Positions 37,873 to 46,801 of a stretch of 64,000 nt of DNA are shown in pieces. Position 1 is the first letter of the stretch, and each line of letters begins with the position of its first letter. Source of the stretch: Escherichia coli. Its GTDB lineage: Bacteria > Pseudomonadota > Gammaproteobacteria > Enterobacterales > Enterobacteriaceae. Below the pieces are notes generated by a model, which worked only from the letters and a program-made list of their open reading frames with translations, ran no database searches and had not been told where the DNA came from. The DNA lies in NCBI RefSeq assembly GCF_003018235.1, contig NZ_CP027437.1. One strand, written 5' to 3'. Made by a program: the position numbers and the translations under genes.

Positions 37873-39410
37873 TGGCAATCACTAAATCAACTCCGGCACC
37901 ATTAACCGGTGGGACGTTATGGTGCGTTACTATTGCATTGTCATTAGCGACGTTTATGCAAATGTTGGATTCCACTATTTCTAACGTCGCAATACCGACA
38001 ATATCTGGCTTTCTGGGAGCATCAACAGACGAAGGCACCTGGGTTATCACTTCGTTTGGCGTAGCAAATGCCATTGCGATCCCTGTTACCGGCAGGCTGG
38101 CACAAAGAATAGGCGAATTAAGATTATTTTTACTTTCAGTCACTTTTTTTTCGCTGTCTTCCTTAATGTGTAGTTTATCGACCAATCTTGATGTGCTGAT
38201 ATTTTTTAGAGTCGTTCAGGGATTAATGGCGGGGCCGTTAATTCCACTGTCACAGAGTTTATTATTAAGGAATTATCCACCAGAAAAAAGAACATTTGCT
38301 CTGGCATTATGGTCTATGACCGTGATTATCGCGCCGATATGTGGGCCGATATTGGGCGGTTATATTTGTGATAACTTTAGCTGGGGTTGGATATTTTTAA
38401 TCAATGTCCCTATGGGGATTATCGTCCTGACATTATGCTTAACCTTACTTAAAGGAAGAGAAACTGAGACTTCACCGGTCAAAATGAATCTACCAGGACT
38501 GACCCTGTTAGTGCTCGGTGTTGGTGGCTTGCAAATTATGCTCGATAAAGGGCGCGATCTGGATTGGTTCAACTCGAGTACAATAATAATACTAACAGTA
38601 GTGTCAGTTATTTCTCTGATCTCTTTAGTCATTTGGGAGTCGACCTCAGAGAATCCGATTCTTGACCTCAGTTTGTTTAAGTCCCGTAATTTCACCATTG
38701 GTATTGTGAGTATCACATGCGCGTATTTATTTTACTCTGGGGCAATAGTCCTTATGCCGCAATTACTCCAGGAAACGATGGGGTATAATGCGATATGGGC
38801 CGGACTTGCCTATGCGCCCATCGGCATCATGCCGCTATTAATATCACCTTTGATAGGACGTTATGGCAACAAAATTGATATGCGGTTGTTGGTGACATTT
38901 AGTTTTTTAATGTATGCGGTTTGCTATTACTGGCGTTCTGTGACATTTATGCCAACGATTGATTTTACAGGCATCATTTTGCCACAGTTTTTCCAGGGAT
39001 TCGCCGTCGCCTGTTTCTTTTTACCCTTAACAACGATTTCGTTTTCAGGTTTGCCAGATAATAAATTTGCCAATGCCTCGAGTATGAGTAATTTTTTTCG
39101 TACCTTGTCAGGATCAGTTGGTACGTCGTTGACAATGACGCTGTGGGGACGACGCGAATCGTTACACCATAGTCAGTTGACAGCAACCATCGATCAATTT
39201 AACCCCGTGTTTAATTCATCGTCACAAATTATGGATAAATACTATGGTTCGCTTTCAGGGGTTCTTAATGAAATTAATAATGAAATAACTCAGCAGTCAC
39301 TTTCAATTTCTGCAAATGAGATTTTCCGTATGGCGGCTATTGCTTTTATCTTACTTACGGTTTTGGTTTGGTTTGCGAAACCGCCGTTTACAGCGAAAGG
39401 CGTTGGGTGA
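37872..39410 (+). CDS. emrY: MFS multidrug efflux pump (EmrB paralog), 512 aa
   Basis: ORF track; 14-TMS MFS; start overlaps the emrK stop. Confidence 0.85.
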   Translation: MAITKSTPAPLTGGTLWCVTIALSLATFMQMLDSTISNVAIPTISGFLGASTDEGTWVITSFGVANAIAIPVTGRLAQRIGELRLFLLSVTFFSLSSLMCSLSTNLDVLIFFRVVQGLMAGPLIPLSQSLLLRNYPPEKRTFALALWSMTVIIAPICGPILGGYICDNFSWGWIFLINVPMGIIVLTLCLTLLKGRETETSPVKMNLPGLTLLVLGVGGLQIMLDKGRDLDWFNSSTIIILTVVSVISLISLVIWESTSENPILDLSLFKSRNFTIGIVSITCAYLFYSGAIVLMPQLLQETMGYNAIWAGLAYAPIGIMPLLISPLIGRYGNKIDMRLLVTFSFLMYAVCYYWRSVTFMPTIDFTGIILPQFFQGFAVACFFLPLTTISFSGLPDNKFANASSMSNFFRTLSGSVGTSLTMTLWGRRESLHHSQLTATIDQFNPVFNSSSQIMDKYYGSLSGVLNEINNEITQQSLSISANEIFRMAAIAFILLTVLVWFAKPPFTAKGVG

Positions 39411-39515
39411 TGGTAAAAAGAGAGAGCTATAGCAGGTAAGACGGTAGAATCTTAAGTCTGCGCCATCGGCAGCATCGCTCACCCAGGGAAAGGATGGCGA
39501 TGCTGCGTTGAAACG

Positions 39516-40847
39516 TTATGAACGGCCTTTTGCCAGATATTGCTCCATCTCTTCTTCCGGCACCATTCCACCTCCCGTCGCCCACACCAGATGAGTGGCA
39601 TTACGCAGTTGTTCTGCGCTGAAACCGTGCATCTGTTGGTAACTTACTGATGCGCACACGCGCTGAGGCCCGGCCATACCCGCCAGTGCCGAAGGTTCAA
39701 GACGAATACCTTCTTCCTGCGCCAGCCAGCCAAGCATGTCATACATGGTTTGATCGCTAAGGGTATAGAAGCCATCCAGTAGACGCTCCATTGCCCGCCC
39801 GACAAAGCCTGATGCGCGACCAACTGCAAGGCCATCCGCTGCGGTAAGGTTGTCGATACCAATATCCTGAACAGAAATCTGATCGTGTAATCCTGTATGG
39901 ACGCCTAACAGCATACAAGGGGAGTGCGTTGGTTCGGCAAAAAAGCAGTGAACATGATCGCCAAATGCCAGTTTAAGCCCGAATGCGACGCCACCAGGAC
40001 CACCGCCAACACCACACGGCAGATAGACAAACAGAGGGTTATCAGCATCGACAATACGACCTTGCTCGGCAAATTGCGCTTTAAGACGCTGGCCTGCGAC
40101 GGAATACCCAAGGAACAACGTGCGGGAATTCTCGTCATCAATAAAGAAACAGTTCGGGTCAGACTGCGCTACTTTACGTCCTTCCTCGACTGCAACACCA
40201 TAATCTTGCTCATATTCCACGACCGTAACGCCATGGCTGCGCAGTTTCGCTTTTTTCCATGCCCGGGCATCAGCAGACATATGTACTGTCACCTTAAAGC
40301 CAATGCGGGCGCTCATAATGCCGATTGATAACCCCAGATTTCCGGTTGAGCCCACAGCAATGCTGTATTGACTAAAGAACTGTTTAAACTCCGGAGAAAG
40401 CAGTTTGCTGTAGTCATCTTCAAGCGTCAGCAACCCCGCTTCCAGAGCCAGTTTTTCTGCATGTGCCAGGACTTCATAAATCCCGCCGCGTGCTTTTATG
40501 GAGCCGGAAATGGGCAAATGGCTATCTTTTTTCAGTAGCAGTTGCCTGCTGATCGGTTGTTGATATTCCTTTTCCAGCCGTTTTTGCATAGCCGGAATGG
40601 CAACCAGTTCTGATTCAATAATCCCCCCAGTAGCAGCAGTTTCAGGAAATGCTTTTGCCAGATAGGGTGCAAAACGGGATAAGCGCGCATGGGCGTCCTG
40701 AACATCCTGTTCGGTCAGGCCAACATAAGGTAAACCTTCAGCCAATGAGGTCGTGCCAGGATTAAACCAGGTGGTTTCTTTAAGAGCAACCAGATCCTTT
40801 ACCAACGGATACTGGGCGATGAGCGAGTTCATTTTAGCGTTTTCCAT
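39516..40847 (-). CDS. dsdA: D-serine ammonia-lyase (PLP-dependent), about 442 aa
   Basis: ORF track; [19 protein letters not shown] recalled as DsdA. Confidence 0.9.
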
Positions 40848-40864
40848 AGTACGTCTCTTTGCGC

Positions 40865-41095
40865 TTAGATGATAAATGACAGCAGGAATGTGCCCGCCAG
40901 AGCGACGACTGAAGCGATAAATGTCGCGGTCGTATAGTATTTAAATGTTTCATTGAGCGTAGCGCCGCAATATTGCTTCACCAGCCAGAAAAGCGAGTCC
41001 GTAACGATCGTGCAGCCAATCGCACCTGAACCGATAGCAATCGCAATAATTTCCGGGCTGATGTCGGGATACAGCGGCAGCACAATGATCCATAT
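40865..41095 (-). pseudogene. dsdX: 3' remnant of the D-serine permease gene (about 72 C-terminal codons); the rest was replaced by the csc island
   Basis: minus-strand frame ...IVLPLYPDISPEIIAIAIGSGAIGCTIV...SFII matches the DsdX C-terminus; in-frame stop just upstream; no dsdC present. Confidence 0.7.
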
Positions 41096-41325
41096 TTATA
41101 TTTTCTTCTCCAGGTTGGCGATGCCAGTTGGCATGTTTTACCTACTTGCCTACATGGTTACTCGTTGGCGAGAACAGAGGCGGAATTGGGTACAATTGTC
41201 CGGGAATTATTGTTATTTTTTATTGTATTGCCGTGTCGGGTGATAGGGCGTCGAGAATATCGTTGGATCTCGCCAGTGACGTCTGTTTCTGCTACAGTGC
41301 CCGTTTTACGGCAAACGGCTTGGGT

Positions 41326-42321
41326 ATGGCTTCATTAAAGGATGTCGCACGCCTGGCGGGAGTGTCGATGATGACAGTCTCCCGGGTGATGCATAATGCA
41401 GAATCTGTGCGTCCTGCAACGCGTGACCGCGTATTGCAGGCAATCCAGACCCTGAATTATGTTCCTGATCTTTCCGCCCGTAAGATGCGCGCTCAAGGAC
41501 GTAAGCCGTCGACTCTCGCCGTGCTGGCGCAGGACACTGCTACCACTCCTTTCTCTGTTGATATTCTGCTTGCCATTGAGCAAACCGCCAGCGAGTTCGG
41601 CTGGAATAGTTTTTTAATCAATATTTTTTCTGAAGATGACGCTGCCCGTGCTGCTCGTCAGCTGCTTGCCCACCGTCCGGATGGCATTATCTATACTACA
41701 ATGGGGCTGCGACATATCACGCTGCCTGAGTCTCTGTATGGTGAAAATATTGTATTGGCGAACTGTGTGGCGGATGACCCAGCGTTACCCAGTTATATCC
41801 CTGATGATTACACTGCACAATATGAATCAACACAGCATTTGCTCGCGGCGGGCTATCGTCAACCGTTATGCTTCTGGCTACCGGAAAGTGCGTTGGCAAC
41901 AGGGTATCGTCGGCAGGGATTTGAGCAGGCCTGGCGTGATGCTGGACGAGATCTGGCTGAGGTGAAACAATTTCACATGGCAACAGGTGATGATCACTAC
42001 ACCGATCTCGCAAGTTTACTCAATGCCCACTTCAAATCTGGCAAACCAGATTTTGATGTTCTGATATGTGGTAACGATCGCGCAGCCTTTGTCGCTTATC
42101 AGGTTCTCCTGGCGAAGGGGGTACGTATCCCGCAGGATGTCGCCGTAATGGGCTTTGATAATCTGGTTGGCGTCGGGCATCTGTTTTTACCGCCGCTGAC
42201 CACAATTCAGCTTCCACATGACATTATCGGGCGGGAAGCTGCATTGCATATTATTGAAGATCGTGAAGGGGGAAGAGTGACGCGGATCCCTTGCCCGCTG
42301 TTGATCCGTTGTTCCACCTGA
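41326..42321 (+). CDS. cscR: LacI-family sucrose operon repressor, 331 aa (ORF extends to 41128)
   Basis: ORF track; N-terminal LacI-type HTH MASLKDVARLAGVSMMTVSRV; csc context. Confidence 0.85.
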   Translation: MASLKDVARLAGVSMMTVSRVMHNAESVRPATRDRVLQAIQTLNYVPDLSARKMRAQGRKPSTLAVLAQDTATTPFSVDILLAIEQTASEFGWNSFLINIFSEDDAARAARQLLAHRPDGIIYTTMGLRHITLPESLYGENIVLANCVADDPALPSYIPDDYTAQYESTQHLLAAGYRQPLCFWLPESALATGYRRQGFEQAWRDAGRDLAEVKQFHMATGDDHYTDLASLLNAHFKSGKPDFDVLICGNDRAAFVAYQVLLAKGVRIPQDVAVMGFDNLVGVGHLFLPPLTTIQLPHDIIGREAALHIIEDREGGRVTRIPCPLLIRCST

Positions 42322-42328
42322 TATTATG

Positions 42329-43762
42329 TTAACCCAGTTGCCAGAGTGCTCCATGTTGCAGCACAGCCACTCCGTGGGAGGCATAGAGCGACAGTTCCCG
42401 TTCTTCTGGCTGCGGATATATTCGGCTACTCATCACCGCCTCCCCGTCGTTAATAAATACTTCCACGGATGATGTATCGATAAATATCCTTAGGGCGAGC
42501 ATGTCACCCTGCGGGAGGGGAATACTACGGTAGCCATCTAAATTCTCGTGTGGGTAATACCGCCACAAAACAAGTCGCTCAGATTGGTTATCAATATACA
42601 GCCGCATTCCAGTGCCGAGCTGTAATCCGTAATGTTCGGCATCACTGTTCTTCAGCGCCCACTGCAACTGAATCTCAACTGCTTGCGCGTTTTCCTGCAA
42701 AACATATTTATTGCTGATTGTGCGGGGAGAGATAGATTGATGCTGCTGGCGTAACGACTCAGCTTCGTGTACCGGGCGTTGTAGAAGTTTGCCATTGCTC
42801 TCTGATAGCTCGCGCGCCAGCGTCATGCAGCCTGCCCAGCCTTCACGTTTTGAGGGCATTGGCGATTCCCACATATCCATCCAGCCGATAACAATACGCC
42901 GACCATCCTTCGCTAAAAAGCTTTGTGGTGCATAAAAGTCATGCCCGTTATCAAGTTCAGTAAAATGCCCGGATTGTGCAAAAAGTCGTCCTGGCGACCA
43001 CATTCCGGGTATTACGCCACTTTGAAAGCGATTTCGGTAACTGTATCCCTCGGCATTCATTCCCTGCGGGGAAAACATCAGATAATGCTGATCGCCAAGG
43101 CTGAAAAAGTCCGGACATTCCCACATATAGCTTTCACCCGCATCAGCGTGGGCCAGTACGCGATCGAAGGTCCATTCACGCAATGAACTGCCGCGATAAA
43201 GCAGGATCTGCCCCGTGTTGCCTGGATCTTTCGCCCCGACAACCATCCACCATGTGTCGGCTTCACGCCACACTTTAGGATCGCGGAAGTGCATGATTCC
43301 TTCTGGTGGAGTGAGGATCACACCCTGTTTCTCGAAATGAATACCATCCCGACTGGTAGCCAGACATTGTACTTCGCGAATTGCATCGTCATTACCTGCA
43401 CCATCGAGCCAGACGTGTCCGGTGTAGATAAGTGAGAGGACACCATTGTCATCGACAGCACTACCTGAAAAACACCCGTCTTTGTCATTCTCGTCTCCTG
43501 GCGCTAGCGCAATAGGCTCATGCTGCCAGTGGATCATATCGTCGCTGGTGGCATGTCCCCAGTGCATTGGCCCCCAGTGTTCGCTCATCGGGTGATGTTG
43601 ATAAAACGCGTGATAACGATCGTTAAACCAGATCAGGCCGTTTGGATCGTTCATCCACCCGGCAGGAGGCGCGAGGTGAAAATGGGGATAGAAAGTGTTA
43701 CCTCGGCGCTCGTGAAGTTTTGCTAGTGCGTTTTGCGCCGCATGTAATCGAGATTGCGTCAT
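42329..43762 (-). CDS. cscA: sucrose-6-phosphate hydrolase / invertase (GH32), 477 aa
   Basis: ORF track; GH32 WMNDPNG motif; recalled CscA. Confidence 0.85.
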   Translation of the reverse strand: MTQSRLHAAQNALAKLHERRGNTFYPHFHLAPPAGWMNDPNGLIWFNDRYHAFYQHHPMSEHWGPMHWGHATSDDMIHWQHEPIALAPGDENDKDGCFSGSAVDDNGVLSLIYTGHVWLDGAGNDDAIREVQCLATSRDGIHFEKQGVILTPPEGIMHFRDPKVWREADTWWMVVGAKDPGNTGQILLYRGSSLREWTFDRVLAHADAGESYMWECPDFFSLGDQHYLMFSPQGMNAEGYSYRNRFQSGVIPGMWSPGRLFAQSGHFTELDNGHDFYAPQSFLAKDGRRIVIGWMDMWESPMPSKREGWAGCMTLARELSESNGKLLQRPVHEAESLRQQHQSISPRTISNKYVLQENAQAVEIQLQWALKNSDAEHYGLQLGTGMRLYIDNQSERLVLWRYYPHENLDGYRSIPLPQGDMLALRIFIDTSSVEVFINDGEAVMSSRIYPQPEERELSLYASHGVAVLQHGALWQLG

Positions 43763-43796
43763 TTTTATCATCCTGGTTAAGCAAATTTGGTGAATT

Positions 43797-43808
43797 GTTA
43801 ACGTTAAC
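43797..43808. promoter_or_regulatory. perfect palindrome GTTAACGTTAAC, candidate CscR operator 1 in the cscA–cscK divergent region
   Basis: 12-bp perfect palindrome read directly. Confidence 0.5.
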
Positions 43809-43860
43809 TTTTATAAAAATAAAGTCCCTTACTTTCATAAATGCGATGAATATCACAAAT

Positions 43861-43872
43861 GTTAACGTTAAC
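43861..43872. promoter_or_regulatory. second perfect palindrome GTTAACGTTAAC, candidate CscR operator 2, nested in a larger TCACAAA...TTTGTGA inverted repeat
   Basis: identical 12-mer 64 bp from the first copy. Confidence 0.5.
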
Positions 43873-43977
43873 TATGACGTTTTGTGATCGAATATGCATG
43901 TTTTAGTAAATCCATGACGATTTTGCGAAAAAGAGGTTTATCACTATGCGTAAGTCAGATGAATTTAAGGGAAAAAA

Positions 43978-44901
43978 ATGTCAGCCAAAGTATGGGTTTT
44001 AGGGGATGCGGTCGTAGATCTCTTGCCAGAATCAGACGGGCGGCTACTGCCTTGTCCTGGCGGTGCGCCAGCTAACGTTGCGGTGGGAATCGCCAGATTA
44101 GGCGGAATAAGTGGGTTTATAGGTCGGGTGGGGGATGATCCTTTTGGTGCGTTAATGCAAAGAACGCTGCTAACTGAGGGAGTCGATATCACGTATCTGA
44201 AGCAAGATGAATGGCACCGGACATCCACGGTGCTTGTCGATCTGAACGATCAAGGGGAACGTTCATTTACGTTTATGGTCCGCCCCAGTGCCGATCTTTT
44301 TTTAGAGACGACAGACTTGCCCTGCTGGCGACATGGCGAATGGTTACATCTCTGTTCAATTGCGTTGTCTGCCGAGCCTTCGCGTTCCAGCGCATTTACT
44401 GCGATGACGGCGATCCGGCATGCCGGAGGTTTTGTCAGCTTCGATCCCAATATTCGTGAAGATCTATGGCAAGACGAGCATTTGCTCCGCTTGTGTTTGC
44501 GGCAGGCGCTACAACTGGCGGATGTCGTCAAGCTCTCGGAAGAAGAATGGCGACTTATCAGTGGAAAAACACAGAACGATCGGGATATATGCGCCCTGGC
44601 AAAAGAGTATGAGATCGCCATGCTGTTGGTGACTAAAGGTGCAGAAGGGGTGGTGGTCTGTTATCGAGGACAAGTCCACCATTTTGCTGGAATGTCTGTG
44701 AATTGTGTCGATAGCACTGGGGCGGGAGATGCGTTCGTTGCCGGGTTACTCACAGGTCTGTCCTCTACGGGATTATCTACAGATGAGAGAGAAATGCGAC
44801 GAATTATCGATCTCGCTCAACGTTGCGGAGCGCTTGCAGTAACAGCGAAAGGGGCAATGACAGCGCTGCCATGTCGACAAGAACTGGAAAGTGAGAAGTA
44901 A
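43978..44901 (+). CDS. cscK: fructokinase (PfkB family), 307 aa
   Basis: ORF track; ribokinase/PfkB-like; csc context. Confidence 0.85.
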   Translation: MSAKVWVLGDAVVDLLPESDGRLLPCPGGAPANVAVGIARLGGISGFIGRVGDDPFGALMQRTLLTEGVDITYLKQDEWHRTSTVLVDLNDQGERSFTFMVRPSADLFLETTDLPCWRHGEWLHLCSIALSAEPSRSSAFTAMTAIRHAGGFVSFDPNIREDLWQDEHLLRLCLRQALQLADVVKLSEEEWRLISGKTQNDRDICALAKEYEIAMLLVTKGAEGVVVCYRGQVHHFAGMSVNCVDSTGAGDAFVAGLLTGLSSTGLSTDEREMRRIIDLAQRCGALAVTAKGAMTALPCRQELESEK

Positions 44902-44962
44902 ACGGCGAGGCCGCTCTTATCTCTAAATAGGACATGAATTTTTTAACGACAGGCAGGTAATT

Positions 44963-46210
44963 ATGGCACTGAATATTCCATTCAGAAATGCATACTATCG
45001 TTTTGCATCCAGTTACTCATTTCTCTTTTTTATTTCCTGGTCGCTGTGGTGGTCGTTATACGCTATTTGGCTGAAAGGACATCTAGGATTAACAGGGACG
45101 GAATTAGGTACACTTTATTCGGTCAACCAGTTTACCAGCATTCTATTTATGATGTTCTACGGCATCGTTCAGGATAAACTCGGTCTGAAGAAACCGCTCA
45201 TCTGGTGTATGAGTTTCATTCTGGTCTTGACCGGACCGTTTATGATTTACGTTTATGAACCGTTACTGCAAAGCAATTTTTCTGTAGGTCTAATTCTGGG
45301 GGCGCTCTTTTTTGGCCTGGGGTATCTGGCGGGATGTGGTTTGCTTGACAGCTTCACTGAAAAAATGGCGCGAAATTTTCATTTCGAATATGGAACAGCG
45401 CGCGCCTGGGGATCTTTTGGCTATGCTATTGGCGCGTTCTTTGCCGGCATATTTTTTAGTATCAGTCCCCATATCAACTTCTGGTTGGTCTCGCTATTTG
45501 GCGCTGTATTTATGATGATCAACATGCGTTTTAAAGATAAGGGTCACCAGTGTGTAGCGGTGGATGCAGGAGGGGTAAAAAAAGAGGATTTTATCGCAGT
45601 TTTCAAGGATCGAAACTTCTGGGTTTTCGTCATATTTATTGTGGGGACGTGGTCTTTCTATAACATTTTTGATCAACAACTCTTTCCTGTCTTTTATGCA
45701 GGTTTATTCGAATCACACGATGTAGGAACGCGCCTGTATGGTTATCTCAACTCATTCCAGGTGGTACTCGAAGCGCTGTGCATGGCGATTATTCCTTTCT
45801 TTGTGAATCGGGTAGGGCCAAAAAATGCATTACTTATCGGTGTTGTGATTATGGCGTTGCGTATCCTTTCCTGCGCGCTGTTCGTTAACCCCTGGATTAT
45901 TTCATTAGTGAAGCTGTTACATGCCATTGAGGTTCCACTTTGTGTCATATCCGTCTTCAAATACAGCGTGGCAAACTTTGATAAACGCCTGTCGTCGACG
46001 ATCTTTCTGATTGGTTTTCAAATTGCCAGTTCGCTTGGGATTGTGCTGCTTTCAACGCCGACTGGGATACTCTTTGACCACGCAGGCTACCAGACAGTTT
46101 TCTTCGCAATTTCGGGTATTGTCTGCCTGATGTTGCTATTTGGCATTTTCTTCCTGAGTAAAAAACGCGAGCAAATAGTTATGGAAACGCCTGTACCTTC
46201 AGCAATATAG
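44963..46210 (+). CDS. cscB: sucrose:H+ symporter (LacY-like MFS), 415 aa
   Basis: ORF track; oligosaccharide:H+ symporter family; csc context. Confidence 0.85.
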   Translation: MALNIPFRNAYYRFASSYSFLFFISWSLWWSLYAIWLKGHLGLTGTELGTLYSVNQFTSILFMMFYGIVQDKLGLKKPLIWCMSFILVLTGPFMIYVYEPLLQSNFSVGLILGALFFGLGYLAGCGLLDSFTEKMARNFHFEYGTARAWGSFGYAIGAFFAGIFFSISPHINFWLVSLFGAVFMMINMRFKDKGHQCVAVDAGGVKKEDFIAVFKDRNFWVFVIFIVGTWSFYNIFDQQLFPVFYAGLFESHDVGTRLYGYLNSFQVVLEALCMAIIPFFVNRVGPKNALLIGVVIMALRILSCALFVNPWIISLVKLLHAIEVPLCVISVFKYSVANFDKRLSSTIFLIGFQIASSLGIVLLSTPTGILFDHAGYQTVFFAISGIVCLMLLFGIFFLSKKREQIVMETPVPSAI

Positions 46211-46289
46211 ACGTAAACTTTTTCCGGTTGTTGTCGATATCTCCATATCCCTCAACCGGAAAATAATAATACAAAAATGCTTAGCCCAA

Positions 46290-46520
46290 CTAATAATCAC
46301 CTAATCCAAACGCCTCATTCATGTTCTGGTACAGTCGCTCAAATGTACTCCGGATACGCGGTTCGCTGATTTCCAGGACATTGTCGTCATTCAGCGACCT
46401 GTCCCGAGTATCACGGGCCTGCGAATTCATCAAGGAATGCATTGCAGAGTGAAGTATCGAGTCACGCCATATTTCGCTATCAGGATTCTGTATGATGGTT
46501 ACATCGCCCGGCCCAGGGCT
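46290..46520 (-). other. start-less ORF remnant of about 60 codons (…IWRDSILHSAMHSLMNSQARDTRDRSLNDDNVLEISEPRIRSTFERLYQNMNEAFGLGDY*) in the cscB–argW spacer
   Basis: manual translation; open frame bounded upstream by a stop, with no plausible start or RBS; identity unknown. Confidence 0.3.
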
Positions 46521-46651
46521 GTTTAGTCATCAGCGCTTTCTGACAGTGCTGAGATTTCAACCTGTTGCAGTAAAAATGAGTAAATATAGGGCAAGTGTGC
46601 TGCCAAACCCATCTTTTACGGGGTGAAGGTAGATATTGTTAGAAGGGTATC

Positions 46652-46726
46652 TGGTGTCCCCTGCAGGAATCGAACCTGCAATTAGCCCTTAGGAGGGGCT
46701 CGTTATATCCATTTAACTAAGAGGAC
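46652..46726 (-). tRNA. argW: tRNA-Arg(CCU), 75 nt
   Basis: reverse complement GTCCTCTTAGTTAAATGGATATAACGAGCCCCTCCTAAGGGCTAATTGCAGGTTCGATTCCTGCAGGGGACACCA. Confidence 0.9.
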
Positions 46727-46801
46727 AATGCGGCATGAGTATACCCGCTAATGGACTGCGGGGTAAGTACGCTGCCGCTCGATTGCTTAAACCCTCGCCA
46801 T

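Follow-up and report, generated by a model that had tools for sequence, protein, structure and literature searches.

The DNA between cscB and the tRNA gene argW raises the question of what lies beside a known integration hotspot (PMC4366372, PMC11251922): a gene, the border of an island with its att junction, or neither. In the window, by which we mean the whole 64-kb stretch of Escherichia coli DNA analyzed here, cscB (415 aa) ends at 46210 and the spacer up to argW occupies 46211-46651. This is 441 bp, in agreement with the roughly 440 bp given in a preliminary description made from the letters of the sequence. That description placed in the spacer a start-less open frame of about 60 codons, took it for a possible vestige of an integrase or another island-border gene, and expected the att junction of the island in the same interval. 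According to our analysis, neither a gene nor an att junction is present: the spacer is a mosaic of three parts, all of them relics without coding function; we put the probability of this reading at roughly 0.85. Coordinates of the features are collected in Table 1.

Table 1. Features of the cscB-argW spacer and corresponding positions in other loci (window coordinates unless a locus is named)
Feature	Position	Strand	Basis
csc-associated 3′ flank	46211..46278 (perhaps to 46290)	+	blastn homology to Citrobacter yjfF/MCP intergenic region
Citrobacter-type element	window 46211-46290; L043 1592-1662; L026 3510-3580; L033 1045-1115		
Hairpin, 11-bp arms TTTTCCGGTTG + CAACCGGAAAA	46220..46263	+	folding
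50-aa ORF (MHSLMN...GLGDY)	46290..46442	-	RefSeq-annotated in some genomes
DUF4942 pseudogene, downstream fragment	46299..46498	-	tblastn, blastn, DNA alignment, Pfam
DUF4942 pseudogene, upstream fragment	46499..46585	-	MAFFT alignment, tblastn
66 bp abutting argW 3′ end	46586..46651	.	no family or element assigned
Haplotype divergence points	window 46651/46652; L006 12099/12100; L050 2300/2301		
argW, tRNA-Arg(CCT)	46652-46726	-	ARAGORN; confirmed by Rfam

Beyond argW the chromosome continues with yfdC and then mlaA. Between mlaA and fadL (window 48800-50400) there is a low-GC islet, with 30-36% GC against about 50% around it, and an Asn/Ile-rich ORF of 426 aa (48965-50245, minus strand) that belongs to no Pfam family. 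The islet is absent from K-12, CFT073 and FEA3, in which mlaA adjoins fadL, and is present in other strains as 'hypothetical protein'.

The peptide quoted in the preliminary description is encoded on the minus strand, and the open frame that contains it has 78 codons rather than about 60 (46293-46526), followed by a TAG stop at 46292-46290 of the minus strand. This 78-aa frame matches the Pfam family DUF4942 (PF13708) with E=1.5e-9 and 38.3 bits at a gathering cut-off of 25, and the 50-aa ORF alone scores 26.1 bits against the same cut-off. A tblastn search of the whole 64-kb window with a full-length DUF4942 protein gave E=1e-15 at 46299-46526, and the downstream fragment is 50-51% identical to DUF4942 in protein sequence (tblastn, E=2e-19). 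In addition, sensitive blastn against 5426 complete E. coli genomes aligned window 46307-46508 with full-length DUF4942 genes of 846 bp at 72-75% nucleotide identity. The similarity of the frame to DUF4942 far exceeds chance. Only profile positions 5-62 of 190 are matched, which is under one-third of the domain; in an intact relative of 281 aa, the domain lies at residues 87-276 and fills profile positions 1-190. No intact ORF with its own start spans the 190 profile positions in the remnant.

The usual context of this family is the end of an island. CP4-type islands carry Ag43, DUF932, antirestriction, RadC, DUF987, CbeA, CbtA, DUF5983, DUF957 and DUF4942 in this order, and a matching order of YeeU, YeeV, YeeW, DUF957 and DUF4942 is tabulated for the SRL PAI (PMC6980539). 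Both of the intact DUF4942 genes inspected (2/2) are the terminal gene of their module, after DUF957, DUF5983 and CbtA. In strain F1022 the upstream series of Ag43, DUF932, antirestriction, RadC, DUF987 and CbeA is complete, and the DUF4942 copy adjoins tRNA-Ile. Because DUF4942 is the last gene of CP4-type islands, the idea of a vestige of an island-border gene was correct, although the gene is not an integrase. Compared with the DUF4942 genes that end CP4-type islands of E. coli and Shigella (L0010 of the LEE-adjacent region of EDL933; orf56 of the SRL PAI), the remnant has a Pfam match above threshold, is 50-53% identical in protein and 72-75% in DNA, and likewise adjoins a tRNA gene, as the intact copy adjoins ileX. 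However, its 5′-end is directed towards argW, whereas the intact ileX-side copy (L004) has its 3′-end towards the tRNA. It also stands without the usual neighbors DUF957, DUF5983, CbtA and CbeA, and what is left of it, codons 38-151 of 281, is interrupted by stops and a frameshifting deletion.

Closer relatives of the remnant are themselves fragments. When 5.8 billion proteins were searched by word seeds, the 28 matches were all E. coli fragments of 44-131 aa with differing ends, and no intact close relative was among them. HMMER, run exhaustively on 1.84 billion representatives, gave as its best near-full-length match a protein of 261 aa with 53% identity, which belongs to the type usual in E. 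coli islands. Neither at argW nor at any other site did we find a present-day island whose DUF4942 gene is nearly identical. For the family as a whole there is no NCBIfam model, and a search by sequence found no solved structure.

The alignment with intact genes shows how the gene was damaged. The downstream fragment corresponds to parent codons ~85-151 of 281 and makes up the homologous core of the 78-codon frame, while the upstream fragment, found by tblastn as a second segment, corresponds to codons 38-67 in another frame with two in-frame stops. Between the two, the MAFFT alignment has a gap of 53 columns, that is, a frameshifting deletion of 53 nt at 46498/46499. As a positive control, local alignment of the upstream fragment to DUF4942 scored 47 against a maximum of 25 among shuffles. 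Both ends of the gene are lost, namely codons 1-37 including the start and codons 152-281, the ~130 last codons, and 128 of the 190 domain positions are gone. Further pieces of DUF4942, including the missing 3′ half beyond csc, were not found by tblastn in the 64-kb window. The DUF4942 homology could not be extended into 46211-46298 (p about 0.07-0.08); this DNA matched Citrobacter instead. The description of the frame as start-less is right in that the real start of the parent gene is missing, but an ATG at 46442 does open the 50-aa ORF. The parent protein has an internal Met at the place of this ATG, and the last few codons and the stop of the ORF fall in non-homologous DNA.

Substitutions in the remnant were compared with those in the adjoining gene. 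Ten alleles, picked across the identity range for diversity, were aligned with their cscB, and variable sites were counted by codon position, which is not a phylogeny-aware dN/dS. At codon positions 1/2/3, the remnant frame has 10/15/12 variable sites compared with 19/7/62 in cscB; the two distributions differ (p=1.4e-5), and that of the remnant shows no departure from uniform (p=0.60). Diversity (pi) is about 0.04-0.05 at each codon position of the remnant, 0.052 in the whole spacer and 0.044 at third positions of cscB. Purifying selection on the remnant coding frame was not detected among the ten alleles. The length left open varies by allele between 43, 58, 78 and 119 codons (78 in 6/10), and alleles L007, L011 and L012 have premature stops, L011 and L012 coming from a group of ~95.5% identity that is frequent among the sampled matches. 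The frame noticed in the preliminary description is a stretch that happens to stay open in this allele. In terms of sequence evolution, the remnant frame is very probably the dead remainder of an island-terminal DUF4942 gene, drifts neutrally and has no coding function.

Annotation of the locus appears to tell another story. The spacer had been described as free of annotated genes, but in many genomes RefSeq has the ORF as 'DUF4942 domain-containing protein' (e.g. WP_001316510.1) or as 'hypothetical protein', and it calls nothing in others, with CDS lengths of none, 105, 153, 183, 207 or 240 nt across genomes. The ORF (50 aa; 60-85 aa in other annotated alleles) could then be a real small gene for a truncated DUF4942-derived protein retained for function. 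Besides the CDS calls, the 78-codon frame that is open in six of ten alleles speaks for such a gene, and so does the fact that csc+ genomes are never without the fragment; its presence in essentially all 2644 of them, with 78 codons open in several alleles, likewise counts against the relic reading. On the other hand, under one-third of the domain is present, substitutions have no codon-position bias, three alleles have premature stops, and starts and ends of the ORF vary among genomes. Moreover, there were no promoter-like sites on either strand of 46100-46850 and no Shine-Dalgarno motif upstream of the ATG at 46442, and Rfam at a permissive E-value gave the tRNA only and no other structured RNA. 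We regard a functional small gene as very improbable. Since 78 codons are still open in several alleles, PGAP calls a protein there.

The att junction is also placed differently from what had been expected. The only att core, TGGTGTCCCCTGCAG on the plus strand, has 15 nt and lies within argW at 46652-46666, just outside the spacer. It is the 3′-terminal end of argW and the core of KplE1/CPS-53-like and P22-like prophages. In the whole window, no second core was found with up to three mismatches, the only hits being the argW copy and a chance-level match at 60833, and no direct repeats were found in 38000-47000. Because the core is single-copy in the window, attB is empty, and the spacer is the distal bacterial arm of an unoccupied attB, not an island junction. 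The corresponding occupied state is seen in K-12, where pawZ is a 15-nt duplicate of the argW 3′-end at attR of CPS-53 (KplE1), with the same core (TGGTGTCCCCTGCAG / CTGCAGGGGACACCA); the window, in contrast, has the argW copy only, without duplicate and without prophage. In csc+ strains that carry a prophage, the core is duplicated beside the spacer as at pawZ. In strain CFSAN061763 the 441-bp spacer is complete and is followed by a second core copy and a torI-bearing prophage, which lies precisely between spacer and argW. In other strains, P22-like prophages or a recombinase-bearing element are found at the same point.

The possibility that the frame is an integrase vestige and that the spacer holds the att junction of a csc island was the main suggestion of the preliminary description. 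It agrees with the standing of argW as a hotspot and with an integrase fragment beside argW in one strain (L002), but that fragment is IntS of a truncated CPS-53-type prophage. Scans of the stop-to-stop frames of the spacer of at least 25 codons against Pfam and PHROGs matched no integrase family, and tblastn of IntS against the spacer gave E of 12 or higher, which is noise. The argW core is not repeated in the window, and the proposed comparison with CPS-53 of K-12 found the spacer unlike both the intS-proximal and the torI-proximal junction. Such an origin is hardly credible. Nor does the spacer amount to a CP4-type island, as integrase similarity and a second att core are lacking, and of the module it contains one gene fragment, with no further gene up to argW.

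DNA on this side of argW differs strongly among strains. K-12 has, beyond pawZ, 95 bp unrelated to the spacer and then dsdC, and the argW flank of CFT073 is a third type of DNA, unrelated to both the csc and the K-12 flanks; no similarity between the CFT073 argW island and the spacer was found beyond argW and pawZ. The csc-type, the K-12 dsdC-type and the CFT073 OmpH/UpaE/ipuAB-type haplotypes part 1 nt beyond the CCA end of argW. In the ETEC strain L7_E1373 (L002 8078-10284), ISEc46 (IS200/IS605 family, TnpB + TnpA) stands in place of the spacer from position 78 onward and abuts, beside argW, an N-terminal IntS fragment of 94 aa with a sequence identical to IntS. As a candidate integrase relic of the csc locus this fragment was rejected, because it is the IntS of a CPS-53-type prophage that ISEc46 has cut; the arrangement in L7_E1373 is a secondary rearrangement in which both the CPS-53-type prophage and the DUF4942 remnant were deleted. 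In NMBU-W10C18 and strain 350 (L008, L010; 2098-2724), an element with a 208-aa 'recombinase family protein' follows the spacer at the place of argW, and the annotation there shows no tRNA within 1.5 kb of the spacer.

The cscB-side part of the mosaic has a different source from the DUF4942 fragment. By blastn, csc+ C. amalonaticus (L043, L022) matches the window from cscK/cscB up to 46278 and no further. In csc-negative C. amalonaticus (L026), the same element of ~70 bp separates yjfF from a gene for a methyl-accepting chemotaxis protein (MCP), and in C. sedlakii (L033) it stands just before the start of the same MCP gene; an 18-mer from the hairpin also retrieved true Citrobacter homologues. 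Compared with the yjfF/MCP intergenic region of the two species, window 46211-46278 is 80-85% identical, hairpin arms included. Weak similarity may run to about 46290, over the first codons of the MCP gene, whose start ATG aligns with an ATA at 46269-46271. The E. coli copy follows cscB and is cut off in the first MCP codons, with ATG changed to ATA, whereas the copy of csc-negative Citrobacter follows yjfF. No yjfF remnant was found at the cscR/dsdX′ junction. Judged by this homology, 46211-46278 (perhaps to 46290) is Citrobacter-type flanking DNA brought along with csc, which points to a Citrobacter-like donor.

The hairpin within this flank is strong (dG -17.3 kcal/mol, z=-3.6), and its arms, unlike the variable loop, are near-invariant in the ten E. 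coli alleles and in Citrobacter, the overall identity between E. coli and Citrobacter being ~80%. It is followed by AAAAUAAUAAUAC, which has no U-tract, and a consensus terminator scan did not call it. The hairpin is hence not a canonical intrinsic terminator, and it may mark or stabilize the 3′-end of the cscB transcript. The scan of the region gave only two weak sites, one of them at 46604-46590 on the minus strand. One may ask whether the spacer is kept for transcript 3′-end formation, with the hairpin ending or stabilizing the mRNA of cscKB and a small minus-strand stem (46590-46604) ending the argW transcript. Stability of the hairpin, conservation of its arms between E. coli and Citrobacter with a variable loop, and the terminator-like site on the argW side are consistent with this. 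However, besides the lack of a U-tract on the cscB strand, the stem on the argW side has 5 pairs in a region that folds no better than shuffles (z=-0.5), and the stem pairs are invariant, which leaves no covariation evidence. A function in 3′-end formation is unlikely as an account of the spacer; it would cover ~60 bp at most and not the DUF4942 fragment, and would complement the mosaic of relics rather than replace it.

The third part, the 66 bp beside argW, is confined to csc-bearing genomes, with one copy in each of 2630 genomes, and is the most variable part of the spacer (pi=0.078). It has no significant match to the 5′-end of DUF4942 or to its upstream DNA. As a piece of a DUF957 gene, its best local match was borderline (p about 0.02-0.03), and this assignment is not claimed. 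The 66 bp may be further-decayed DUF4942 5′ DNA or island DNA.

The distribution of the spacer follows csc. It occurs in 2644 of 5426 complete E. coli genomes, always on the chromosome and with 93-100% identity, at >80% of its length in 2623, and the 3′-end of cscB occurs in 2645. None of the ~2780 csc-less genomes contains the argW-proximal 80 bp. The linkage of spacer and csc is essentially complete. The preliminary description had made its case depend on protein similarity and on conservation in other csc-bearing strains; both are present, the latter in essentially every such genome (2644 vs 2645).

The spacer is also found in four GenBank 'complete phage genomes' (ON470589.1 (L048), ON470594, ON470608 and ON470622). 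ON470589 (L048 1-4400) opens with cscA-cscK-cscB and the spacer ahead of the excisionase, so the record takes in host DNA flanking an argW prophage. Such host flanks probably explain the remark that csc occurs in coliphage genomes (PMC11251922).

How the parts came together can be outlined in two ways. By analogy with the usual context of the DUF4942 family, the fragment would have an island origin: it would descend from a former argW island, or from a mosaic delivered with csc, and deletions would have removed the rest. In the first version, a CP4-type island formerly resided at argW and nearly all of it was deleted, leaving the DUF4942 fragment; csc would then have overwritten the 3′ part of the island, the old attR, dsdC and the 5′ part of dsdX. 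The ~70-80 bp on the cscB side would have entered with the csc cassette from a Citrobacter-like chromosome. Because the 5′-end of the fragment faces argW, origin from a resident island requires loss of the whole island interior. In the second version, no island at argW ever contained the fragment; an intermediate host or vehicle would have delivered it already joined to csc, in a single pre-assembled mosaic. Such co-arrival is slightly favored by the complete linkage, as spacer (2644), argW-proximal 80 bp (2630) and cscB (2645) co-occur, the 80 bp are found in 0 of ~2780 csc-less genomes, and the DNA of K-12 and CFT073 is unrelated from 1 nt past argW. However, the csc flank of Citrobacter runs on into the MCP gene and not into DUF4942, which demands at least one extra joining event, and no donor with this junction was found. 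We consider arrival in one piece quite conceivable, if doubtful. Tentatively, and at slightly less than even odds, we suggest that the csc cassette was cut from a C. amalonaticus/sedlakii-like chromosome together with ~70-80 bp of yjfF/MCP DNA, and was then joined, at argW or en route to it, to a decaying CP4-type island that would have left nothing but the DUF4942 fragment.

The object itself is ordinary: RefSeq annotates it already, its kind is well known, and it concerns history rather than function. Where PGAP has placed a short 'DUF4942 domain-containing protein' CDS between cscB and argW, as it has in many sampled csc+ genomes, the call is best handled as a pseudogene fragment. At this hotspot, the active recombination site is the 15-nt core within argW and not the spacer. 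If the proposed history is true, the old transfer of csc ran from Citrobacter to E. coli; the reverse direction has been raised for some csc copies of Citrobacter (PMC11251922). The mosaic of the spacer offers a usable marker of csc/dsd replacement, which points to a Citrobacter-type flank and to a CP4-type island that has vanished or was co-transferred.
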